Shown: positions 1 through 60,643 of the stretch, piece by piece
How positions within the stretch are numbered: the first letter of the stretch is position 1
Layout of the letters: each line of letters starts with the position of its first letter
NCBI GenBank assembly: GCA_947586835.1
Contig: CANPXT010000006.1
Location: 422-64,421, forward strand
From: an uncultured Alphaproteobacteria bacterium
GTDB lineage: Bacteria; Pseudomonadota; Alphaproteobacteria; CAAHEQ01; UBA3637
Direction of reading: 5' to 3'
Length of the DNA: 64,000 nt
Notes under the pieces: model-generated
Seen by the model: the letters and a program-made list of their open reading frames with translations, nothing else
Told to the model about the DNA's origin: nothing
Databases searched by the model: none
Made by a program: the position numbers and the translations under genes

Positions 1-580
1 GTGCACCACCTTTACTTGTTGCGGTGTTTTTCTCGAAAATATCCGTGTCAAAAAGCGTTTTTCCTTGGAAACCTTCAACGGCTTGATTAAGTGGCATAAG
101 TGTTACCGCACCGCCTTGAGACGCAGAATTTCCCGTAAAAGTAGAATTCAAAACTTTATCTTCTTTAGCCGCTTTGTCATGAGCATCATGCCATAAAGAT
201 AAGGCACCACCTGAACCGCCGTCTACTGTGGTTTTGTTATTTGTAAAAGTGCTGTTATTAATTGTTGTTTGTTTTTGTGTTGAATTCCAGCCAATATCAG
301 GATACATATTCATGTAAACACCATAATTGCTGCTATCCCAACCATCTGCGGTAATTTGAAGCTCATTATTTGTTTCATCATAATCACCTGTAACTTTATC
401 TTTTGAGTCAGAATCTTTGGATAGTGTTTTTTCTGAACTAAAAAATAAAGCATTTTTATTAATGGTTGATTGCAGGTCTTGAGCGCTGGCGGGTAATGCA
501 ACCATAGTGCCCATTAAAAGCGCAGCATTTAATAAAGCGCATTTCTTTAAAATATGTCCGTACTCATGCGATAAATACAT
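1..580 (-). CDS. Pmp-repeat (FxxN/GGA) autotransporter-like surface protein, N-terminal part only; the ORF runs off the left edge, so it is absent from the supplied ORF track
   Basis: Hand translation of the minus strand from ATG at 580 is open for 193 codons down to position 2, with an in-frame TAG upstream at 608-610. The N-terminus MYLSHEYGHILKKCALLNAALLMGTMVALPASA/QD is signal-peptide-like. Three FxxN...GGA units follow (STFTNNKTTVDGGSGGALSL, STFTGNSASQGGAVTL, DIFEKNTATSKGGA), typical of polymorphic-membrane-protein passenger repeats. Confidence 0.6.
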   Translation of the reverse strand, partial: MYLSHEYGHILKKCALLNAALLMGTMVALPASAQDLQSTINKNALFFSSEKTLSKDSDSKDKVTGDYDETNNELQITADGWDSSNYGVYMNMYPDIGWNSTQKQTTINNSTFTNNKTTVDGGSGGALSLWHDAHDKAAKEDKVLNSTFTGNSASQGGAVTLMPLNQAVEGFQGKTLFDTDIFEKNTATSKGGA

Positions 581-681
581 AAGTGCTGTTTTTGAATATT
601 TTATCATACTAATTTCTCCTTGATAATTAAATTAAAGTATTGATGCTCTTTTTTATGAAGAACATCACTCCTCGACTATTG

Positions 682-709
682 AGTATACAAAAACGTACGT
701 TTAATGCAA
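682..709 (-). promoter_or_regulatory. Putative sigma70-type promoter of the Pmp-like gene (TTGCAT-16 nt-TATACT on the minus strand), with the palindrome AAACGTACGTTT lying in the spacer
   Basis: Plus-strand atgcaa at 704-709 gives -35 TTGCAT. Plus-strand agtata at 682-687 gives -10 TATACT. The -35 lies inside the gene-proximal inverted-repeat arm. Confidence 0.4.
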
Positions 710-843
710 CGATTTTTTCGACACTTTTGAAGGGTAAGCAAAAAAATTAAGGAAAAAATAAAAAACAATAAAAATCAATGAGTTAAAAGAAAAATAAATT
801 TTTTTTGCAAAAAATGAAAAAAAGTGTTGCAAAAAACGTACGT
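693..843. repeat. IR-flanked upstream module, copy A: 26-bp arms (22/26 complementary) at 693-718 and 818-843 around a 99-bp A/T-rich spacer
   Basis: Arm 693-718 is ACGTACGTTTAATGCAACGATTTTTT. The reverse complement of 818-843 is ACGTACGTTTTTTGCAACACTTTTTT. The spacer and the distal flank (TTATTTTGTGCAG) are homologous to copies at 24656-24805 and 42749-42899. Confidence 0.85.
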
Positions 844-1158
844 TTATTTTGTGCAGTGAGGAAATCCACCGAACGGCTGATTTTCTTTCCCCCGATGCTC
901 TAGTTTTTTTAACTCCCATTCGGCAGAAAACCTCTCTTTTTTTAGACCATCAAACTGACAATAAAAACAACAAGAAAAAAAATCTCATCAATCACCAGTT
1001 TCGGGAAATATGATCAGAAACATAATATTGTCATTAATAATAAAACAATTTTATTTTAATATTCAATATGTTAATAATAATTTTTAATGTATTAAATTAA
1101 TATAAAAAGCAATCAAGATTATCAATAATTAAAGCTATATTACAACGCTTTTTATAAG

Positions 1159-1196
1159 AAAAAAAGCCCGTTGACAATTGAGCCAACGGGCTTTTG
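1159..1196 (-). terminator. Rho-independent terminator downstream of ppdK
   Basis: GC stem AGCCCGTTG (1165-1173) pairs with CAACGGGCT (1184-1192). It is followed on the minus strand by a T-run (plus-strand A-run 1159-1165). Confidence 0.7.
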
Positions 1197-1212
1197 GTTT
1201 GAATGGAAATAA

Positions 1213-3879
1213 TTATTTCTTTTCGTTGCGGACTGCCGCTTGCGCTGCTGCCAATCGTGCAATAGGAACACGATACGGTGAGCAGGAAACATAAGTTAAT
1301 CCGACCCGATGACAGAAGTCAATGGTTTTCGGATCTCCACCGTGTTCGCCGCAAATACCCAGTTTGATATTCGGACGAACGGATTTTCCTTTCTGTACGG
1401 CAATTTCAACCAACGCACCCACACCTTCCTGATCCAATGAGGCAAACGGATCTTGTTCGTAAATGCCTTTTTGGACATATTCGGGTAAGAACGAACCGGC
1501 ATCATCACGACTCATACCCAAGGTTGTTTGCGTTAAGTCGTTTGTTCCGAAACTGAAAAATTCGGCTGTTTCGGCAATCTTGTCAGCCGTGATTGCTGCC
1601 CGCGGCAATTCAATCATGGTTCCGACATGATATTCGAATTTCTTGCCTGATTCGGTCATGACTTCATCAGCCACTTTCACCACAACGGCTTTGGCTAAAT
1701 CAAGCTCTTTTTTCGTGCCGACAAGCGGAATCATAATTTCCGGTACAATGGTTTTACCTGTTTTCGACATAACTTCAACAGCCGCTTCAAAAACAGCCCG
1801 TGCCTGCATTTCGTTGATTTCAGGATATGTAATGCCTAACCGACAACCGCGATGTCCCAACATTGGGTTGGCTTCGTGTAATTTGGCTGTCCGTGCAGCA
1901 ATTTCTTCAACACTGACGCCTAATTCACGGGCAATTTCTGCCTGTTCTTCGCGCTTGTTCGGCAAGAACTCATGCAATGGCGGATCCAAGAAACGAATGG
2001 TAACCGGTAAACCTTCCATAATGGTAAATAGGTCAACAAAGTCTTGACGTTGATACGGTAACAATTTTGCCAAAGCTTTACGGCGATCTTCAACCGTGTG
2101 CGACAAAATCATTTCGCGCATGTGATTAATCCGTGCCGGATCAAAGAACATGTGTTCCGTACGGCACAAACCGATACCTTCCGCACCGAATTGACGAGCC
2201 GTTTTGGCATCAAGCGGTGTTTCGGCATTGGTACGAACACCTAAAGTACGAATTTCATCGACCCAGCTCATAAATTCGCCGAAATTACCCGTCATTTCAG
2301 GTAAAACAAGCTTTAAAGCACCTGACATAACTTGACCGGTTGTTCCGTCAATGGAAATCATATCGCCTTCTTTAATAATCGTTTCACCGACTTTTAAGAA
2401 TTTACCTTCATAATCAATTCTTAAATCAGATACGCCGGACACACACGGTTTACCCATTCCGCGCGCCACAACGGCTGCGTGAGATGTCATACCGCCGCGG
2501 GCTGTTAAAATACCTTGCGAAACATGCATACCGGCAATATCTTCCGGTGAAGTTTCAATACGAACCAAAACAACTTTTTTGCCTTCGCCGGCTTGTTTTT
2601 CAGCATCTTCCGCCGAGAATACGACCTGACCGACGGCAGCACCGGGAGAAGCCGGTAAACCGGTTGTTAAAACAACCCGTTTTTCCGATTTATCAAACAT
2701 CGGGTGCAATAATTGATCCAATTGCGGCGCTTCAACACGCATAATAGCTGTTTTCTTATCAATCAAGCCTTCTTTGACCATTTCAACGGCAATGCGCAAC
2801 GCAGCCGTACCCGTACGTTTACCGTTCCGCGTTTGCAACATCCATAATTTTCCGTCTTGAATGGTAAATTCCATATCTTGCATATCTTTATAATGTGCTT
2901 CCAGTTTTTCACGAATGGCATTCAATTCGTTATAAACGGCAGGGAATTCTTCTTCCATGCAGGGCAGGTCGATATGACGTCGTTCTTTAACAAGTTTTGT
3001 CATCGGTTGAGGTGTACGAATACCGGCCACAACGTCTTCCCCTTGGGCGTTTTTCAAATATTCACCGTAGAAGTAATTTTCACCGGTTGCCGGATCACGC
3101 GAGAAGCAAACGCCGGTTGCCGATGTGTCACCATAGTTACCGAATACCATGGTTTGAACGTTAACGGCTGTACCCCAATCACCAGGAATATTGTTTAATT
3201 TCCGATAATAAATGGCACGATCAACCATCCATGAACCAAACACGGCACCGATACCGCCCCAAAGCTGTTCTTTCGGATCTTGCGGCAAGGGATGTCCGTC
3301 TTTTTCGCAGATTTCCTTATATTCTTTAATAACGGCTTTTAATTGTTCAACCGTCATTTGATTGTCAAACTTGTAACCGTTTTCTTCGCGAACTCTGTCT
3401 AATACGGCTTCAAACTTTGAGCTGTGAACGCCCATCACCACATCGCCATACATTTGAATAAACCGACGATAGCTGTCATAAGCAAACTTTTCATTACCGG
3501 ATTTTTCTGCCAAGCCGACAACCGTTTCATCATTTAAGCCTAAATTCAAAACGGTATCCATCATACCCGGCATGGAAACCCGAGCGCCTGAACGAACCGA
3601 AAATAAAAGAGGATTTTTCGGATCACCGAATTTTTTACCCATTTTGGCTTCAATACCGGCCAAAGCGGTTAAAACCTGATCTTTTAAATCAGCCGGATAT
3701 GTATGATTATTTTCATAGTAATATGTGCAAACTTCCGTTGTAATGGTGAAACCCGGCGGAACGGGAACACCGACACGGCTCATTTCAGCCAGATTCGCGC
3801 CTTTACCGCCTAAAAGATTACGCATGTCGGCATTGCCTTCCGCTGCGCCGTCACCAAATGTGTAAACCCATTTTGTCAT
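1213..3879 (-). CDS. ppdK: Pyruvate, phosphate dikinase
   Basis: 888-aa ORF. N-terminus [24 protein letters not shown], phospho-His region [15 protein letters not shown] and C-terminal PEP-utilising TIM-barrel motifs ([11 protein letters not shown]) are all typical of PPDK. Confidence 0.97.
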
Positions 3880-4112
3880 TTATTTTTCCTTTGTTATTTG
3901 TTAAAAAAAACCATAAAATACTTTTGATTATGGAAATTGATTTTTTTACCTTGCCTGTTTACCACTTTTTAAAAATGATTGCAAGGCTTTTTTTCAAAAT
4001 TTCAAAAAAAAGTCATAAAAATACTTTTTTTAGACGAATATTCTTTTTTTTCTTCCCTTTTATACCAAAATAATGTTATAAAGAATTGAAACGACACTTG
4101 AAAGAGGCTCAA

Positions 4113-6332
4113 ATGACAGAACAACTTGATATTCAAACAATTGATTTAATTCGAACAGGACGTTTTTACGGCGATATTTTTTCGGTCTTGGGTATGCATG
4201 AAGAAAAAAATCCGACAGGCAAAAAAATAATTGTCGTTCGAACATTTCAACCGCAGGCAGAGAAAATTGAATTAATCAACTGCAATACAAAAGAAACCTT
4301 TTTAATGAATAAAAGAACATCAGACGGTTTTTTTGAATGCGTGTTTGCCGATTCCTCATTTTTCGAATATGCTTTTAAAATCACGCTTTATGGCGGAGAT
4401 ACTTATGAAACGCGAGATGTCTATAGCTTTTTACCTGTTTTGGGCGATTTTGATTTATATCTCTTTAACGAAGGGACTCATAAGGAAATATATGAAAAAC
4501 TGGGTGCGCATTTAATAGCGCATCAAGGTTGTAAAGGCGTTTGTTTTGCCGTTTGGGCACCAAACGCCAAACGAGTCAGTGTTGTCGGTAATTTTAATGA
4601 TTGGGACGGTCGGCGTCATGTTATGCGACCGCGGGGACAATCCGGCGTGTGGGAATTATTTATTCCGCATTTGAAAGAGTGGAGTATATATAAATATGAA
4701 ATTATCGGAGCTGACGGCGAGTTGCTGCCGTTAAAAATTGATCCTTACGGACAGGCGTTTGAAATGCGTCCGAAAACGGGAACACTGGTTTTTGATCAAA
4801 ACACTTATGATTGGAACGATTCTCACTGGATTTCACGCGAACGTTATCGGGTTAACGCATTGGATAAGCCGATTTCCGTATACGAGGTACATTTCGGATC
4901 ATGGCGTCGAAATGCATTGGAAAATAATCGCTGGCTGACTTATCGGGAAATGGCGGAAGAGTTGCCGGCCTACTTGCTTGAAAACAAATTTACACATGTG
5001 GAATTTTTACCATTGGCAGAGTATCCGTTTGACGGATCTTGGGGGTATCAGCCGACAGGACTTTACGCGCCGACAAGCCGATACGGATCGCCGAATGATT
5101 TTAAATATTTGATTGATAAACTGCATCAGGCGGGAATCGGGGTTATCATGGACTGGGTACCTGCTCATTTTCCGAAGGATGCTTTCGGACTTTCAAACTT
5201 TGACGGTACAGCTCTTTATGAACATCAGGATCCGCGTTTGGGGGAACATAAAGACTGGGGAACCAAAATCTATAATTACGGCAGAAATGAAGTTTCTTGC
5301 TTTTTATCGGCCAATGCTTTGTTTTGGATCAGAGAATATCATATCGATGCGTTGCGGGTTGACGCCGTTGCCAGTATGTTATATCTTGATTATTCCCGAA
5401 AAGAGGGTGAATGGATCCCCAACAAATACGGCGGACGTGAAAACATTGAAGCCATTAATTTCCTGCGTCGCTTAAATGAATATATATATGGCGAGAATGT
5501 AGGCGCGGTTACGTTTGCGGAAGAATCAACCTCATGGCCTATGGTTTCCAAACCGACTTATATCGGCGGTTTAGGTTTCGGCTATAAGTGGAATATGGGG
5601 TGGATGCATGATACATTGGAGTATATGCAACATGATCCCGTATTACGGAAATATCGTCAAAACGAGCTGACATTCAGTTTTCTTTATACTTTTTATGAAA
5701 ACTTTATTTTACCGCTTTCGCATGATGAGGTTGTTCACGGAAAAGGTCCTATGATTGACAAAATGCCGGGTGATTTTTGGCAGAAAATGGCTAATTTGCG
5801 TTTATACTATACTTATCAGTTTATGCATCCCGGCAAAAAACTTCTTTTTATGGGGAATGAATTTGCCGTTCGACGGGAATGGAATTATGCCGACAGTTTA
5901 GATTGGGATTTGTTAAAAAATCCAATTCATTTGGGTTTGCTGCGATTAATAAAAGAATTGAACACGTTATATCAAACAAAGAGCGAATTATATGAACTGG
6001 ATTGCGAACCCGGCGGATTTGAATGGATTGATGGCAGTGACAGCGATAACTCCGTTTTAACGTTTATGCGAAAAAATAAAGCAGGGGACACCTTAATTAT
6101 TGCCTGCAACTTTACACCGGTTGTTCGAAAAGATTATCGAATCGGCGTTAACCAAGCCGGACAATATAAAGAAATATTTAATTCTGATGATACGCTTTTT
6201 GCCGGTTCCGGCGTTATCAATAAAGATATTCTCGAAACATCCGACGGGTGGAATTTTAAACCGTTTTCTTTAACCGTTACATTACCGCCGCTTGGTGTTT
6301 CAGTTTTTCAGCTTAAAAAAGAGAGGGAATAA
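4113..6332 (+). CDS. glgB: 1,4-alpha-glucan (glycogen) branching enzyme
   Basis: GH13 motifs are present (DWVPAHF, GIDALRVDAVASMLY, FAEESTSWP, LSHDEVVHGK). The ATG at 4113 follows AAAGAGG; the TTG at 4086 in the ORF track is less likely to be the start. Confidence 0.95.
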   Translation: MTEQLDIQTIDLIRTGRFYGDIFSVLGMHEEKNPTGKKIIVVRTFQPQAEKIELINCNTKETFLMNKRTSDGFFECVFADSSFFEYAFKITLYGGDTYETRDVYSFLPVLGDFDLYLFNEGTHKEIYEKLGAHLIAHQGCKGVCFAVWAPNAKRVSVVGNFNDWDGRRHVMRPRGQSGVWELFIPHLKEWSIYKYEIIGADGELLPLKIDPYGQAFEMRPKTGTLVFDQNTYDWNDSHWISRERYRVNALDKPISVYEVHFGSWRRNALENNRWLTYREMAEELPAYLLENKFTHVEFLPLAEYPFDGSWGYQPTGLYAPTSRYGSPNDFKYLIDKLHQAGIGVIMDWVPAHFPKDAFGLSNFDGTALYEHQDPRLGEHKDWGTKIYNYGRNEVSCFLSANALFWIREYHIDALRVDAVASMLYLDYSRKEGEWIPNKYGGRENIEAINFLRRLNEYIYGENVGAVTFAEESTSWPMVSKPTYIGGLGFGYKWNMGWMHDTLEYMQHDPVLRKYRQNELTFSFLYTFYENFILPLSHDEVVHGKGPMIDKMPGDFWQKMANLRLYYTYQFMHPGKKLLFMGNEFAVRREWNYADSLDWDLLKNPIHLGLLRLIKELNTLYQTKSELYELDCEPGGFEWIDGSDSDNSVLTFMRKNKAGDTLIIACNFTPVVRKDYRIGVNQAGQYKEIFNSDDTLFAGSGVINKDILETSDGWNFKPFSLTVTLPPLGVSVFQLKKERE

Positions 6333-22831: not shown

Positions 22832-22904
22832 TTTCGGTGATAATAAAGCAACGTATAACAGTAGCATTGAGGGATATAAAGAAAAAACGCATACATTAAT
22901 GAAG

Positions 22905-23157
22905 CATTTCACTACTTTTAGTTGTAAAAATTTATAATATTTCTACTTTAAATATATAAAATGAAAAAAATCTGCTAAATTTTTTGCTATTGATATTCTT
23001 ATTTTTATTCATGTATGTATAATTTAATTAATTTTTGATGATATTTTTTTGTCTGTCGGCGGGTGGAACAGACGGTGTTTCAGCGGGAAGTGCCGGCTCG
23101 GGGAACGTGAGCCGGCGCGGGTGGTGCGGGAGGCTGGTAGGTCTCACTTACATAAGG
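22905..23157. repeat. Conserved 3'-flank repeat of the pilin-like loci, copy 1 (twin at 41271-41524); contains a GC-rich hairpin element
   Basis: It aligns by eye over ~250 bp with few substitutions or indels to 41271-41524. Shared blocks include TTGTAAAAATTTATAAT, ATGTATGTATAATTTAATTAATTTTTGATGATATTTTT, and CGGCGGGTGG...GTGTTTCAGCGGGAAGTGCCGGCTC-loop-GAGCCGGCGC. Confidence 0.85.
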
Positions 23158-23206: not shown

Positions 23207-23686
23207 TCAATCAATACATACAGCATCAGCTTGGTAATAGAAGTCATCACGAAAGTAGTTTTGACCGATATTACCACTATAGAAGCCTACCCAGTATTTG
23301 ATGCAGGAGTTACTCCCTTCACTTGTTGTCCATACATAACTACCTGCTTCTGACATATTTTCAGACAACTTTTCAGACAACTCCTTCAATATCATACTAT
23401 CAGCACATTTGTTACTTCCTGACTCTACAGGAAGTAAAAATTTTGAACACCCCAATTCTTCTAAGCTCACCATCTTTTTGCCAATCGCATAGCAATACCT
23501 CTCTACACTCCACCAGTTCATACACGGACCTATATAATAAGTTGTCCCGTATACTTCCACTTTTTGCGGTTCCTCTATATCCTCACATGTATAGCTACTG
23601 CAAGAAGTTTCGACACCATTGGAGCAACCACACTCTTTGGTCATGCAATATTGACCTGTATCACAATTATTGCAAGGATTTTCCAC
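23207..23686 (-). CDS. C-terminal (Cys-containing, C-type-lectin-like) domain ORF of a split modular pilin-like gene
   Basis: The 159-aa ORF (GTG start in the track) is collinear with residues ~245-395 of the intact paralog 41511-42698 (CSNGVETSC.SY.C.DI.EPQKVEV.G.TYY; MVSL.ELGC). No independent RBS or ATG is visible. It is separated from the upstream ORF only by a +1 frame change at an A8 tract. Confidence 0.6.
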   Translation of the reverse strand: MENPCNNCDTGQYCMTKECGCSNGVETSCSSYTCEDIEEPQKVEVYGTTYYIGPCMNWWSVERYCYAIGKKMVSLEELGCSKFLLPVESGSNKCADSMILKELSEKLSENMSEAGSYVWTTSEGSNSCIKYWVGFYSGNIGQNYFRDDFYYQADAVCID

Positions 23687-24611
23687 ACACTTTTTTTTCT
23701 AAACTGCTCCAATATTTTCCTTCATCACATTCGCATCGCTTCGTTTCTTCATTCCATATGCCACTCGTGGTGGGATCACAAACCACACATTGACCACCGT
23801 ATAAATGCTTTTCTTTATCTTTACATACGCATTCGCTTACCCCTTCATCCCACTCCGTATCCGTCGGGCATGTTATGCACTTTTCGCCGTTCCAATACTT
23901 ATCCGTTTCCGAACATTCACACTTTTCCCCGTCCCATGTGGAATCTGTCGGACACTCTCCACACGTTCCGTCTTCATTGCATGGCCCTTGACAACTTTCA
24001 TCGCATGCCGGTTCCTCTCCTTGCGCTTCGTCTTCCACATTACCTTCACCACCGCTGTTGCGTATCTTTTCACCCGAAAAATCAACTTCCAATGTGTTAC
24101 TGACTTCACTGCATAATGTTACATTCAATTCCGAAGTGCATTTCGTGCCATTTATCACAACTGCTACCGTTTCATCCATACTTTCTAAAAGTGTTGCCAA
24201 CGGTTTGCATACGCCAGCCGTTACCCCTGATACGCTGATAAAATATCCGCTTTTCTCCCTTTCTTCCTCTTCTTCCGACTCTTCCGTGTCATGATTAAAC
24301 CCGAAATCAACTTTATATTTTTCGTTAAAACTCAAATGCCCTAATTCTTCCCCGATTTTGTCATACGGCTCACCTAAAAATAATTTTTGCTCCCCTTGAG
24401 CCAGTTTTATTTTGGCATCATTGCGCATTAAATTTATTTCATTCGCAATTTGATTCGCCTGATACCGTTCCATTGCCATTTTATAGCCTGCGATTCCCCC
24501 CAGTGAAATCACGCCGATAATAGCCAAAACACCCAGCATTTCAACCATTGACCGCCCGTCTTGTGCCTGATTTTGATGCTGCTTTGTTTTATTCTTTTTT
24601 TGAATTTCCAT
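23667..24611 (-). CDS. Modular pilin-like surface protein, N-terminal fragment: class-III (prepilin-type) signal, pilin-like domain and Cys-rich EGF/furin-like repeats
   Basis: The ATG at 24611 is preceded by GGGAGAAAGGG. The leader is MEIQKKNKTKQHQNQAQDG/RSMVEMLGVLAIIGVISL, with Gly at -1, Glu at +5 and a hydrophobic helix. There are 16 Cys in residues 202-309. The longer 385-aa track ORF reads through the upstream IR module and is rejected. Confidence 0.7.
   Translation of the reverse strand: MEIQKKNKTKQHQNQAQDGRSMVEMLGVLAIIGVISLGGIAGYKMAMERYQANQIANEINLMRNDAKIKLAQGEQKLFLGEPYDKIGEELGHLSFNEKYKVDFGFNHDTEESEEEEEREKSGYFISVSGVTAGVCKPLATLLESMDETVAVVINGTKCTSELNVTLCSEVSNTLEVDFSGEKIRNSGGEGNVEDEAQGEEPACDESCQGPCNEDGTCGECPTDSTWDGEKCECSETDKYWNGEKCITCPTDTEWDEGVSECVCKDKEKHLYGGQCVVCDPTTSGIWNEETKRCECDEGKYWSSLEKKVCGKSLQ
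23691..23698 (-). other. A8 homopolymer (T8 on the plus strand) at the frame junction of the split pilin-like gene
   Basis: Minus strand reads ...AGT TTA GAA AAA AAA GTG TGT GGA AAA TCC TTG CAA TAA. With A7 the frame reads ...LEKKCVENPCNNC... straight into the 159-aa ORF. Confidence 0.9.
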
Positions 24612-24643
24612 GAACCCTTTCTCCCGTTTACTTTTTCCTAAAT

Positions 24644-24672
24644 TGTATAAATTAAACGTAGGTTTATTGCAA
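24644..24672 (-). promoter_or_regulatory. Putative promoter of the pilin-like gene (TTGCAA-17 nt-TATACA), with the -35 inside the proximal IR arm
   Basis: ttgcaa at 24667-24672 is palindromic. Plus-strand tgtata at 24644-24649 gives TATACA on the minus strand. The same -10 block is conserved at 42737-42742. Confidence 0.4.
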
Positions 24673-24805
24673 CACTTTTTCGCACGCTTGAAAGAACAAA
24701 CATTTTGAAAACAAGAAAAGAATAACCGATTGAAAATGAACAAAAAACAAGAAAAATAAATTTTTTTGATGAAAAATGAAAAAAAGTGTTGCAATAAACC
24801 TACGT
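24656..24805. repeat. IR-flanked upstream module, copy B: perfect 25-bp inverted repeat (24656-24680 / 24781-24805) around a 100-bp spacer
   Basis: ACGTAGGTTTATTGCAACACTTTTT is the exact reverse complement of AAAAAGTGTTGCAATAAACCTACGT, checked base by base. Confidence 0.95.
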
Positions 24806-24858
24806 CTATTTTGTGCAGATTCAAAAAAAAAGCTGCTCGGAATGAGCAACTTTTTAAA

Positions 24859-30920: not shown

Positions 30921-31625
30921 TTAAAATGTCCACAATAAATTAAGATACAACAAAAAGAAAACAACAATGCCCGCCAAGCCCAATGCCGGTCCGAAAGCAT
31001 CTGCTCGTTTTTTCTTAATCCAAGCCGTGGCATAGAAAAACAAAAATGAAAGCAAAAGCGTGATATTTAATCCCATAGGACCAAACCAAATACCGAAAGC
31101 CGTTAACATTTTCACATCACCGGCACCGAATTCGCCTTTTTTGAAAAACGACATTATGAAAACGGCAAGGGTGGAAATAATGTAGCCGAACCACGCCCCG
31201 ATAATTCGTTCATTCATCGTTAAAACGGTATCCGACGAAAAACAAGCAAATGTAACACCGATTAATAATAAAGGAATGGTAAAAAAATCGGGTAATAAAT
31301 AATATTGTTGATCTACCGCCATTAAAAGAGCCGTTAAATAAAAAAACAGGCAAGCATAAACATAGATATGCGGTAAAAAAGCACAGGCATACGCAAACAA
31401 AAATCCCATGACAACACCCCAACCAACCGAAAAATAAATCATTTTTCGCCATTTTCCCTCTAACAATTCGCGACGTTTTGCATCTGCTACGCGCGGAAAC
31501 CGCGGTTTATGGAAAAGCATGGCACAAACCAAACCCGGATCGGCGGGTAATATTTTACCGAAACGACTGGCAAATGTCGGTATGGTTAAACCGAGTAAAA
31601 AGCCAATGAACATAATAACCGTCAT
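30921..31625 (-). CDS. Prepilin (A24 family) aspartic peptidase, without an obvious N-terminal Cys-rich methyltransferase module
   Basis: Polytopic membrane protein with a GAGDVKMLTAFG motif (GxGD-type second catalytic Asp). No CxxC pairs are visible at the N-terminus. Confidence 0.75.
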   Translation of the reverse strand: MTVIMFIGFLLGLTIPTFASRFGKILPADPGLVCAMLFHKPRFPRVADAKRRELLEGKWRKMIYFSVGWGVVMGFLFAYACAFLPHIYVYACLFFYLTALLMAVDQQYYLLPDFFTIPLLLIGVTFACFSSDTVLTMNERIIGAWFGYIISTLAVFIMSFFKKGEFGAGDVKMLTAFGIWFGPMGLNITLLLSFLFFYATAWIKKKRADAFGPALGLAGIVVFFLLYLNLLWTF

Positions 31626-41056: not shown

Positions 41057-41270
41057 TTACACATAAAGAGTAAAAAAAACGGCTTTTTGCTAAACGGCAA
41101 GAAGTCGTTTTTTTATGTCTCAAATCCCAACTGCGATGATGGCGTGTAACGCTGTTATTGTTAACGAAATTTTTCTTCTATCAGCGAGTGAAAAACGTTG
41201 CAAAAAGTGGCAAGAAATGAAAAACAGCAGCAACACCGATGGTTACAAAAAAAATACATACATGTATGTA

Positions 41271-41524
41271 AATTTTCACCACTTTGGGTTGTAAAAATTT
41301 ATAATTTTTCTACTTTTAATATATAAACGAGAAAAATATTTCGAAATTTTTTGCTGTTTATATTCTCATTTTTATCGATGTATGTATAATTTAATTAATT
41401 TTTGATGATATTTTTTCGTTTATCGGCGGGTGGGACAGAGGGTGTTTCAGCGGGAAGTGCCGGCTCGTGAAACGTGAGCCGGCGCAGGTGGTCAGAGAGG
41501 CTGAGAGGTCTTACTTACATAAGG
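41271..41524. repeat. Conserved 3'-flank repeat of the pilin-like loci, copy 2 (twin of 22905-23157)
   Basis: See copy 1. Hairpin GCCGGCTC (41459-41466) pairs with GAGCCGGC (41476-41483); the loop is GTGAAACGT, versus GGGGAACGT in copy 1. Confidence 0.85.
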
Positions 41525-42698
41525 TATCAAAACCGCCTGATTCCTGGTAGAAGTCTCTATTACTACCGGGAACTATCACGTATGCCTTGCAGGAATTCTC
41601 ACTATCATCAGATGGTTTTGTCCATAAAGCTCTTCTTCCAGCATTTTTTTCCTGCAGCTTCTTTATTAATGCACTTCCGGAACAGTCGACTGTTTTCGCC
41701 GTCGCTGTGCATCCCAACTCGCTTAAACTTACCATCTGTCCTGTTCCCTTCCCTTGTCTTCCTAATGCTTGGCAATATCTCTTTGCATTCCACAACTCCA
41801 TCAAAACATTATCCGTATAATAATAAGTCTCCCCGTCTACTTCCACTTTTTGCGGTTCTCCTATATCCATACATCTATAACTCCGGCAAGAAGTTTCAAC
41901 ACCATTGGAGCAACTACAACTGAGCATACAAAATTGATTACTGAGGCAATCATCATCTGTTGTACAATTCTTTCCTATTGTTGTCGCTGTTGCTGTCTCT
42001 GTTGTTATTGCTGCCGTTGTCGTAATGGGGGTTGTCGTTATCGGAGCTGTCGCTGTCGGTGTTGTCGGCATCGGTGTTGTTGGCGTCGGTGTTGTGGGCG
42101 TCGCTGTCGTAGTGGTAAATGTCACTGCCGTTGTCATCGGTTCATCTTCCTCATCATTCACAACACCCAAATCTGTGGTCGAAAATGCCACTTCTATTTT
42201 GTTTTCTGTGGCGCAAATGTTCCAATCCGTATCATAATAATCAACTTCATTTACTTTTATATCTTCCGTGTCTTCCATACTATCTAAAAGCGTGACTAAC
42301 GGTTTGCATACGCCCTCTGAAATGTTTGATACACTGATAAAATATTCATCTTCCGTCTCTTCCTCTTCTTCCGGATCTTGCGAATCATTATTAAACCCGA
42401 AATCAACTTTATATTTTTCGTTTAAACTCAAATGCCCTAATTCTTCGCCATCATTATCGTATGGTTCTCCTAAAAATAAATCGGCACCTTGTGCTACTTT
42501 CATCTTCATATCATTGCGTATTAAGTTGATTTCATTCGCAATTTGATTCGCCTGATACCGATCCATTGCCATTTTATAGCCTGCGATTCCCCCCAATGAA
42601 ATCACACCGATGATGGCCAAAACACCCAGCATTTCGACCATGCTGCGCCCGTCTTGTGCTTGTTTTTGTTGTTGTTTTAATTGTTTATTTTCTTGCAT
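41511..42698 (-). CDS. Modular pilin-like surface protein (intact paralog): class-III signal, pilin-like domain, Thr/Pro-rich linker and a Cys-containing lectin-like C-terminal domain
   Basis: The ATG at 42698 is preceded by GGGAGAAAGGA. The leader is MQENKQLKQQQKQAQDG/RSMVEMLGVLAIIGVISL. A disulfide pair sits in the pilin-like part (GVCKPL...NIC). The linker is TTAVTFTTTTATPTTPTPTTPMPTTPTATAPITTTPITTT. The C-terminal domain contains W.AKRYCQALG....MVSLSELGC...WT....NSC. Confidence 0.75.
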   Translation of the reverse strand: MQENKQLKQQQKQAQDGRSMVEMLGVLAIIGVISLGGIAGYKMAMDRYQANQIANEINLIRNDMKMKVAQGADLFLGEPYDNDGEELGHLSLNEKYKVDFGFNNDSQDPEEEEETEDEYFISVSNISEGVCKPLVTLLDSMEDTEDIKVNEVDYYDTDWNICATENKIEVAFSTTDLGVVNDEEDEPMTTAVTFTTTTATPTTPTPTTPMPTTPTATAPITTTPITTTAAITTETATATTIGKNCTTDDDCLSNQFCMLSCSCSNGVETSCRSYRCMDIGEPQKVEVDGETYYYTDNVLMELWNAKRYCQALGRQGKGTGQMVSLSELGCTATAKTVDCSGSALIKKLQEKNAGRRALWTKPSDDSENSCKAYVIVPGSNRDFYQESGGFDTLCK

Positions 42699-42748
42699 TT
42701 TCGTGAATCCTTTCTCCCGTTTACTTTTTCCTAAATTGTATAAATTAA

Positions 42749-42899
42749 ACGTAGGTCTAGTTGGTGCACTTTTTTGCACGCTTGAAAAAACAAACATTTT
42801 AAAAATAATAAAAAAATAACCGATTGAAAATGAATAAAAAACAAGAAAAATAAATTTTTTTGATGAAAAATGAAAAAAAATGTTGCAAAAATCGTACGT
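42749..42899. repeat. IR-flanked upstream module, copy C: the distal arm and spacer are conserved, the proximal arm is degenerate
   Basis: The reverse complement of the distal arm 42874-42899 is ACGTACGATTTTTGCAACATTTTTTT. The proximal arm 42749-42775 is ACGTAGGTCTAGTTGGTGCACTTTTTT, which matches only at the ACGTA.G start and the T-run. The spacer is nearly identical to copy B. Confidence 0.75.
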
Positions 42900-42951
42900 T
42901 TATTTTGTGCAACTCCAACCCCCAAAATTTATTAATCTTAAAAAAAACAAC

Positions 42952-59164: not shown

Positions 59165-60643
59165 TTATCTTTGATTGAGCTTTTTTTGAGAGAGAACGGA
59201 TTCTTGCTGATGTATACTCCGAAGAATTTTTTGATCATTATCTTTTTCTTCCGCACTTAATTTACCTTGCAAAGAGCGATAAATTTTTGAAGCTGATGCG
59301 TATTTAAGCTTCTGATAAATTTTTCTTCTCCAAGAAGTACCGATTTCAGAATGCAAGAATTTTTCACTGCAACTCATTTTCTTTAATGCCAACTGCTCTT
59401 CTTCCGTCAGAGCTTTTTTCATTTGAGCTGTCATTACCGATTGCAACGGATACCATGATTTTAAAAGTTTGGAAATTTCCGTGTATTCCTTGCTATCAGC
59501 ATATGCCAGCGCCGTTTTTCCGTCCTTATCTTCGGTATTTACATCAATTTCAGGCACATTTAACAAAGCCGACACAATTTCCGGATGATTGTTATTTATG
59601 GCAATCATCAGTGCCGTTTTTCCACCTTCATTTCTGGCATTCACATCAATTTCCGGAGCTTTTAACAAAGCTTCCACATTTTTTGTATTACCATACCGCG
59701 CAGCCTGCATTAATGCCGTCCAATGATGTCCGTTTTTGGCATTCACATCAATTTCCGGCACTTTTAATAAGGCTGATACAACTTCCGGATCATTATTTCG
59801 CGCGGCATACTGCAAGGCTGTCATTTTATTATTGCTATTTTGGGTATTTACTTCAATTCCAGGCACTTTTAGTAATTTTATCACAATTTCAGGATTGTTG
59901 TTGCGTGTTGCATACATTAACGCCGTCATATTATTTTTATCTTTCACATTGACGTCAATCCCGGGCATTTTTAAGATCTCTGATACAATAATCTCGGAGT
60001 TATAAGTTGCAGCACGCATTAATTCGGCATTAAGATCAGTTCCCGGAACTTTTAACAAACTCGACACAATTTCCGGATGTTTATAGTCAGCAGCATACGC
60101 CAGCGCCGTATCACCTTTCATATCTTGAATAGCAGCAATTCCCGGCACCTTTAACAAAGCTGATACGATTTCAGAGCTGTTACGAGCGGCAGCCAACATG
60201 AGGGCAGATCTTCCATAGTTATCTTTGGCACCGATAACATCAATTCCCTGTGTTTTTAATAAAGCCGATGCAATTTCCTGATAATTGTTTTTAGCGACAA
60301 TTATTAACGCTTTTCCCTTTTGTGCATTGACATTAACACCCGGCACTTTTAACAATTTCGTCACAATTTCTAAATTATTGTTCGCAACGGCCGTTACCAA
60401 GGCTTTTCCGTTTTGTGCATTAACATTAATGCCCGGCACCTTTAATAATTCCGATAAAATTTCCAAATTATTATTTGCAATAACGGTATTCAACGCCGTA
60501 TTACCGTATATATCTTCTTCGTTAACATCAACACCTTGTCGAATTAAGCTTTTTACCTTTTTTAACTTTCCCTCGCGACAAGCTGTTATCAGTCGAGTAC
60601 TTTTTTCTTCCGGTTTTCTGATATTCATATAATTCATAGGCAT
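59165..60643 (-). CDS. Ankyrin-repeat protein (about 11 regular repeats) with a ~90-aa non-ANK C-terminal domain
   Basis: Repeats have the form ...TAL..AA.NN.PEIVSALLKVPGIDVNA.... The start is AGGAGG-N6-ATG. The C-terminal block is KFLHSEIGTSWRRKIYQKLKY. Confidence 0.85.
   Translation of the reverse strand: MPMNYMNIRKPEEKSTRLITACREGKLKKVKSLIRQGVDVNEEDIYGNTALNTVIANNNLEILSELLKVPGINVNAQNGKALVTAVANNNLEIVTKLLKVPGVNVNAQKGKALIIVAKNNYQEIASALLKTQGIDVIGAKDNYGRSALMLAAARNSSEIVSALLKVPGIAAIQDMKGDTALAYAADYKHPEIVSSLLKVPGTDLNAELMRAATYNSEIIVSEILKMPGIDVNVKDKNNMTALMYATRNNNPEIVIKLLKVPGIEVNTQNSNNKMTALQYAARNNDPEVVSALLKVPEIDVNAKNGHHWTALMQAARYGNTKNVEALLKAPEIDVNARNEGGKTALMIAINNNHPEIVSALLNVPEIDVNTEDKDGKTALAYADSKEYTEISKLLKSWYPLQSVMTAQMKKALTEEEQLALKKMSCSEKFLHSEIGTSWRRKIYQKLKYASASKIYRSLQGKLSAEEKDNDQKILRSIHQQESVLSQKKLNQR

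Follow-up and report, generated by a model that had tools for sequence, protein, structure and literature searches.

The inverted repeat at positions 691–845 of the 64-kb stretch of DNA analysed here (the window) is most likely one of dozens of small flippable switches that tune pilin-like and other surface genes in an uncultured rabbit-gut alphaproteobacterium, a kind of regulation known chiefly from Bacteroides. Judged from its sequence, the module is most likely a promoter inverton of the Mpi type and not a repressor operator. The palindrome AAACGTACGTTT at its heart is probably the crossover core of a recombination site, one whose place in a promoter spacer is incidental, since the core stands in both arms of every module, a homologous locus (L046) carries the intervening DNA inverted, and a gene of the Mpi family lies beside a module in a relative. 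On the same three grounds the proposal of an earlier note, that the palindrome is a classic repressor operator, is probably wrong; a protein may nevertheless also bind AAACGTACGTTT as an operator, alongside the crossover role.

Results

A doubled palindrome in the promoter region of a Pmp-like gene

A repeat search resolved the inverted repeat as two 28-nt arms (691–718 and 818–845), complementary at 24 of 28 positions (86%) and separated by a 99-nt spacer. The repeat starts 84 nt upstream of the ATG at 607, and a short segment bounded by inverted repeats therefore sits directly before the gene. The arms listed in the earlier note (693–718 and 818–843, 22/26) are the same repeat, trimmed by 2 nt. 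The palindrome AAACGTACGTTT occurs exactly twice in the 64 kb, at 691 and 834, against an expectation of 0.48 when one mismatch is allowed. Counting inverted repeats that match at 24 or more of 28 positions and are spaced 50–200 nt apart gave 12 position bins in the window, as against 0 in each of five shuffles. Both the repeat and its doubled palindrome are far above chance expectation.

On the minus strand the proximal palindrome is flanked by TTGCAT (709–704) and TATACT (687–682), 16 nt apart, and so has the position previously claimed for it between a -35 and a -10 hexamer. The parts of this module (copy A) and the two further copies in the window are listed below; where no strand is given, none applies.

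1–607, minus strand: 5' end of the controlled gene, whose product is a surface protein with repeats of the Pmp type (polymorphic outer membrane protein-like) and a signal peptide; cut by the window edge
615–620, minus strand: RBS AGGAGA, 7 nt before the ATG at 607–605, as read from the sequence
682–687, minus strand: predicted -10 hexamer TATACT, outside the invertible segment and hence fixed
691–718: predicted gene-proximal recombination site (P arm), consisting of the core palindrome AAACGTACGTTT (691–702) and the inner arm
709–704, minus strand: -35-like TTGCAT in the P inner arm, as read from the sequence
697–839: predicted invertible segment of 143 bp, core centre to core centre, from the L046 alignment and the core spacing of the family
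773–785, plus strand: AATCAATGAGTTA, near the segment centre, a candidate bending or accessory site that fits the IHF-type core WATCAANNNNTTR
783–826: A/T-tract block aaaagaaaaataaattttttttgcaaaaaatgaaaaaaagtg, abutting the distal inner arm, a candidate UP-like element and a spacer block common to copies A, B and C
818–845: predicted distal recombination site (D arm), with inner arm GTGTTGCAAAAAA, TTGCAA at 827–832 and core AAACGTACGTTT at 834–845
846–856: distal outer arm ATTTTGTGCAG, mirroring the proximal outer arm, without a -10-like hexamer
24632–24829: copy B of the module, upstream of a pilin-like gene starting at 24611 (minus strand)
about 42738–42912: copy C of the module, upstream of a pilin-like gene starting at 42698 (minus strand)

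The A/T-tract block is among the best-conserved spacer blocks of the family consensus, at the centre of which a block AAAAATCAATGA is also conserved. The IHF-like label for 773–785 is based on the IHF-type core WATCAANNNNTTR; this central motif may bind a protein.

The product of the gene downstream of copy A matches Pfam Chlam_PMP (E=2.3e-7), and a 335-aa version of it in L001 matches TIGR01376 POMP_repeat. Its translation is without the pilin-like N-terminus of the products encoded behind copies B and C, which bears out the earlier statement that this gene is not a pilin paralogue. In rabbit-gut metagenomes, the stretch encoding its signal-peptide region (504–605) is covered at 10–40 times the depth of the flanks, pointing to a family of Pmp-like genes with a common N-terminus.

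Copies B and C precede pilin-like paralogues

As had been noticed from the sequence, the distal spacer block of copy A and the CTGCACAAAATAA flank beyond the distal arm recur at both copies B and C. The three copies have one common orientation, each lying just upstream of a minus-strand gene. The gene products behind B and C are paralogues with a type IV prepilin-like N-terminus (...GRSMVEMLGVLAIIGVISL...), and the two regions belong to a segmental duplication with 85–90% identity across gene and module. Downstream of both there is also a 281-nt repeat (22877–23157 for B, 41244–41524 for C; 85% identical), so that their duplication spans module, gene and 3' flank.

In copy B both inner arms are of one type (TTGCAATAAA) and both cores carry CCTACGT. 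The underlying change from GTAC to CTAC is thus found in both arms, as expected if partner sites must match for strand exchange. The orientation of copy B is identical in three other assemblies that reach the module. In copy C the TTGCA hexamer has been lost from the proximal inner arm, with the implication that only the flipped form of this copy would have a -35.

The pilin-like gene behind copy B (23207–24611) is apparently split into an ORF at 23667–24611 (314 aa) and an overlapping ORF in a different frame at 23207–23686 (159 aa), both of which align with the single 395-aa gene behind copy C (repeat families D5 and D7–D9); it may be a frameshifted pseudogene or the result of a sequencing error. 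At copy C, an in-frame ATG at 42797 within the module gives the pilin ORF (41511–42797, minus strand) a spurious 33-aa N-terminal extension. Exact protein look-ups with the B and C proteins gave no match, for which differing start calls by gene callers may be the cause. The window also encodes a type IV prepilin leader peptidase (Pfam Peptidase_A24; 30921–31625, minus strand), consistent with processing of the pilin-like N-termini, and a 492-aa ankyrin-repeat protein (59165–60643, minus strand) made up of about ten tandem units of 93–105 nt. Ankyrin-repeat proteins are unusual in free-living bacteria and typical of host-associated ones.

The module belongs to a large family in related genomes

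In rabbit-gut metagenomes the module core is covered at ~100–300 times the depth of single-copy flanks, indicating a module present in very many copies. Scanning GTDB species representatives by pattern returned 37 loci with the distal arm. These derive from the MAGs Lapin-032 bin105 and Lapin-024 bin64 (each named 'uncultured Alphaproteobacteria bacterium') and from Akkermansia-binned contigs, the window's own genome not being included. Two loci labelled Akkermansia (L019 and L028, CANQYL01) share their modules and pilin-like genes with the Alphaproteobacteria MAGs, and such contigs are probably mis-binned. JGI metagenome contigs gave 0 matches to the ordinary distal arm; the module family is therefore absent there, and the 0 matches to flipped junctions in the same contigs say nothing. 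A scan of IMG/VR likewise gave 0 matches.

The MAG loci (~250 kb sampled) contain 62 complete modules, making 65 together with the three of the window. Each module end is a site of ~32 bp in which the core (C/G)GTACGTTT stands between an inner and an outer arm. The distance from one core centre to the other is 144±1 bp in 64 of the 65, even between spacer types that can no longer be aligned. The inner arms differ systematically: the gene-proximal arm (P) reads cgcgTTGCATTAAA, while the distal arm (D) reads agtgTTGCAAAAAT and always has A/T tracts on its inside. Accordingly high is the A+T content of the 30 nt inside the D arms, with a mean of 0.94 as compared to 0.61 at P arms. The same arm faces the gene in all 65 modules, those of the MAG loci and those of the window.

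Pilin-like genes, encoding proteins of roughly 450–720 aa, lie downstream of 56 modules; one module precedes a Pmp-like gene (copy A), one a DXD glycosyltransferase, and the rest a few unknowns or contig ends. Counting copies and scoring their association with surface genes, the check suggested in the earlier note, gave almost only surface-type genes across the two related MAGs and the window. At copy A and several other copies, neither the gene that follows nor its leader is related to the rest. The module is a multi-copy family that does not depend on the coding sequence, as the earlier note suggested.

Terminal inverted repeats, a length of ~170 bp and many copies would equally describe a MITE scattered through the genome. 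All 65 copies, however, precede a start codon by a fixed distance and have one orientation relative to the gene, with 0 inside genes and none pointing away from one; no target-site duplications are evident next to the arms, and the outer flank forms the -10 and leader. Scattered or intragenic copies, named beforehand as the mark of MITE behaviour, are thus not what the 65 modules display, and we regard a MITE as very improbable.

Variant modules were also encountered. L014 2011–2122 (D/D) and L018 3217–3328 (P/P) have matching inner arms at both ends with the spacer in its usual orientation, which points to gene conversion between arms. The L008 module (1790–1975) is flanked by two divergent genes. 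On one side its D arm, with the A/T tracts, borders directly on a perfect TATAAT and a 379-aa gene of unknown function; on the other side, 150 nt from its P arm, is a GAF + PEP-utilizing (PtsP-like) gene. This module may toggle between two genes. Joins that skip the spacer were seen in the window (711 to 792), in L044 (6012 to 6077/6087 and 6013 to 6094) and in L016 (5134/5135 to 5242). The metagenome contigs and reads with such joins have roughly single-copy depth, with 64–107 nt missing, and seem to represent 'mini-modules' in which little besides the arms and the A/T-tract block is retained. Finally, ~40 nt past the distal arm (…aaaataaaccgytcacttttcccctatcg) are conserved in many L-type copies, for example at about 5900–5950 of L044, and the repeated unit is therefore longer than the module.

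A relative encodes an Mpi-family serine recombinase beside a module

In the Lapin-024 MAG, a 197-aa serine recombinase is encoded 287 nt from a module (L016:4218–4811). It harbours a Pfam Resolvase and a C-terminal HTH domain, its closest solved structure is the Gin DNA-invertase, and it scores 283 bits against the NCBIfam equivalog NF009949 'master DNA invertase Mpi family', for which the cutoff is 272. The protein is ~60% identical to thousands of others, one of which is named by NCBI 'master DNA invertase Mpi family serine-type recombinase', and it was the sole match in a catalytic-motif scan of the window and all loci. Pfam searches of the large ORFs and the motif scan revealed no recombinase of any kind in the 64-kb window; the enzyme is therefore documented only in a related species. 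With regard to tyrosine recombinases, no Phage_integrase match was found among the window ORFs, and none was found by motif scan of the window and loci.

The Mpi target consensus is reportedly ARACGTWCGT. Both arms of copy A match this pattern on both strands, the sequence AAACGTACGT in each arm fitting the consensus, and the window contains 5 pattern matches as compared to 0.6 expected.

Other Mpi homologues were also inspected. Four of them (P0092, P0093, P0094 and P0098) have no modules or ACGTWCGT sites nearby. Two more distant members of the family (L051 and L052; 64–68% identical), from other MAGs, lie beside Eco57I/ResIII-type restriction-modification genes, with no modules nearby. Immediately upstream of the invertase gene in L016, positions 38–3916 encode a 1292-aa repeat-rich protein without a Pfam match, which from its sequence looks like an autotransporter or adhesin.

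A homologous locus carries the segment in the opposite orientation

A search with the gene A product identified a homologue of gene A in the assembly of another sample (L046). The -10 hexamer TATACT, leader, RBS and gene start of this locus align directly with the window, at 79% as computed, a value that end gaps lower. The inner 139–140 nt agree with the window at 78% in reverse complement, compared to 56% in the forward direction. In L046 the D arm and A/T tracts adjoin TATACT, and the P arm adjoins a distal-type flank; reciprocal joins of just this kind would result from an inversion whose breakpoints lie in the cores. L046 has only the 5' region in common with the window, the distal flank and the rest of the protein being different, and it counts as a homologous locus and at most as a possible allele of the copy A locus.

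A second, slighter indication comes from copy C. The tip of a Logan contig (L007) runs from the copy C distal flank into AAACGTAGGTC, which elsewhere is found only in the C proximal arm. With three informative bases only, the tip is a hint of a recombinant junction of copy C. A contig from a sister run, probably of the same sample (L005), has the unflipped copy C junction.

Assemblies covering the three copies were found via the neighbouring PPDK, HU and U32-peptidase genes. Those of A and B have the window's orientation or break inside the module, and the same is true of C except for the L007 tip. Contigs and reads were also placed on modules A, C, L044 and L016. Raw reads of two gut metagenomes, where the organisms are only thinly present (depth ~85–100x, summed over the arms of the family), contained no strand-switch junctions within modules at a threshold of three or more reads. 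No strand-switch junction was called in Logan contigs on the modules either, where k=31 leaves fewer than 20 nt on one side, below what is callable. The uniform orientations and the lack of flipped reads imply that inversion is rare, strongly biased or possibly only evolutionary. The evidence for both orientations of the segment is comparative (L046 and, more slightly, the L007 tip). In the search for flipped spacers in relatives that was earlier advised, the homologous locus L046 is inverted and the 62 MAG modules are all in one orientation.

We considered whether a static promoter region could give rise to these features. A dimeric repressor bound to AAACGTACGTTT at the promoter spacer and to a second site 143 bp upstream, with looping of the DNA between them, would reduce the inverted repeat to two operator copies with their flanks. 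Such an arrangement would suit the placement of a perfect palindrome between -35 and -10, an operator spacing kept at 144±1 while the spacer sequence drifts, the one orientation of all assembled copies except L046, and raw data free of flipped reads. It would not account for inter-core DNA that is precisely reverse-complemented in L046 with both junctions reciprocal, and it leaves the L007 tip unexplained. Nor does it sit well with conserved arms that reach well past the palindrome, with inner arms systematically unlike at the two ends, or with an Mpi-family invertase gene beside a module, and no candidate regulator was found next to the modules. We therefore hold two-operator looping to be unlikely. 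The earlier description of a portable cis-regulatory or recombination cassette of a surface regulon is upheld in its recombination half; the operator reading is probably wrong.

The modules could alternatively be a relic, that is, the duplicated promoter-leader region of a paralogous family, spread by duplication and occasional recombination, with L046-like inversions as rare evolutionary accidents. The segmental duplication of B and C and the uniform orientation in the MAGs are compatible with this, and the arm-conversion variants L014 and L018 show that general recombination does act on the arms. Against it, copy A and several other copies stand before unrelated genes with unrelated leaders, the geometry and both sites persist even as the spacer diverges, an intact gene of a dedicated invertase family is present (L016), and the L046 and L007 breakpoints fall within the core, as for site-specific exchange. 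This explanation appears to us slightly less probable still than operator looping, and an Mpi-type promoter inverton remains our preferred reading.

An apparently split promoter and a proposed switch

At 60 of the 65 gene-proximal sites a TAnnnT motif lies 17–18 nt after the TTGCAN hexamer, whereas this is so at only 1 of the 65 distal sites. This argues that the -10 and leader are fixed, and that the inner arm turned towards the gene, P or D, provides the -35. A consensus promoter scan called TTGCAA-16-TATACT in the flipped locus L046, and nothing at the corresponding position in the window or in L044, a typical P-state copy. Reading the arms as sigma-54 or Bacteroidetes-type promoters was rejected on inspection by eye, due to a misfit in spacing. 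In the sole RNA run found, which carries no start-site information, module depth was proportional to copy number.

We postulate that two ~32-bp sites in inverted orientation bracket the 143-bp segment, and that an Mpi-family serine invertase, encoded elsewhere in the genome, would bring them into synapsis, cleave inside the core and flip the DNA between them. The -10 (TATACT, 682–687), leader, RBS and gene would lie outside the segment and stay fixed, while the -35 hexamer, being within the inner arm, would be exchanged by inversion. In the window's state the promoter would have a -35 of TTGCAT with unremarkable upstream DNA; after inversion it would have TTGCAA, preceded by phased A/T tracts resembling an UP element. 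The predicted polarity is thus a low or OFF state for the window orientation and a high or ON state for the flipped form, which fits with nearly all paralogues being in the P state in consensus assemblies. Since either orientation offers a -35-like hexamer, the switch may adjust the level of expression instead of silencing the gene. It is from sequence that we infer the flipping by an L016-type enzyme, the use of the hexamers as promoter, the identity of the ON state and the role of the A/T tracts.

One type of switch placed before dozens of pilin-like paralogues and a few other surface-related genes would result in combinatorial phase variation of the cell surface. In its broadest form the proposal is of a very large inverton regulon (62 modules in ~250 kb from two relatives), in which one Mpi-family invertase flips 143-bp cassettes, swapping the -35/UP half against a fixed -10, and thereby drives combinatorial phase variation of long type IV pilin-like proteins, Pmp-like adhesins and a glycosyltransferase. 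To this whole we give somewhat less than even credence.

Significance and comparison with known systems

If correct, the strategy of one master invertase acting on many promoter switches extends from Bacteroides to an uncultured alphaproteobacterial gut lineage, where an exceptionally large set of pilin-like surface proteins would be under its control. The switch would be of compact design, with the core between -35 and -10 and only half a promoter being moved, and its activity would account for the assembly breaks at module loci. The defined repeat motif would moreover let metagenomes be scored for orientation, rendering surface phase variation measurable in an uncultured gut bacterium.

Among characterised systems, the E. 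coli fimS switch uses the tyrosine recombinases FimB and FimE, which act on 9-bp repeats to invert a 314-bp element containing the whole promoter. The modules resemble fimS as short invertible promoter elements that precede a pilus or adhesin gene and may contain an IHF-type site, but no tyrosine recombinase was found here by Pfam in the window or by the motif scan. The Hin/Gin/Cin systems, such as Salmonella hin-hix flagellar phase variation and Gin of phage Mu, are built around one invertible segment of ~1–3 kb, with the invertase gene inside it or next to it. Similarities are the candidate enzyme, whose closest solved relative is Gin, the imperfectly dyad-symmetric sites in inverted orientation, and a conserved block inside the segment as candidate accessory or enhancer site. 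The modules differ in having a 143-bp segment, dispersed copies and an enzyme proposed to act in trans.

In surveys of gut bacteria with PhaseFinder and DeepInverton, invertons are described as inverted repeats around promoter-like DNA near surface genes, which can be grouped by repeat homology and linked to particular invertases (PMC11892184, PMC11602134). The modules reported here are of the same general class. Our literature search found no description of this repeat group, of the host lineage or of a pilin-like regulon of such size, which is not proof of novelty.

The nearest parallel is Mpi of Bacteroides fragilis, where one master serine invertase flips at least 13 dispersed promoter regions, including those of seven capsular polysaccharide loci (PMC5903667). 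As in that system, there is a small serine recombinase above the NCBIfam Mpi-family cutoff (here in a related MAG, at L016), many dispersed short segments are flanked by inverted repeats of one sequence and lie upstream of genes for surface structures, and the invertase is unlinked to most of its presumed targets. The arm core AAACGTACGT likewise fits the Mpi consensus, reportedly ARACGTWCGT. The differences are equally marked: the host is an uncultured alphaproteobacterium and not a member of the Bacteroidales, the downstream genes are type IV pilin-like paralogues and a Pmp-like gene in place of polysaccharide loci, and the copies are far more numerous, with 62 modules in ~250 kb from two relatives. 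In addition, the predicted -10 lies outside the segment, so that the -35/upstream half and not the whole promoter would be exchanged, and inversion driven by the enzyme is here a proposal. By function and by enzyme family the module is most likely an Mpi-type promoter inverton, one that departs from the Bacteroides paradigm in its host, its regulon, its copy number and its apparently split promoter.
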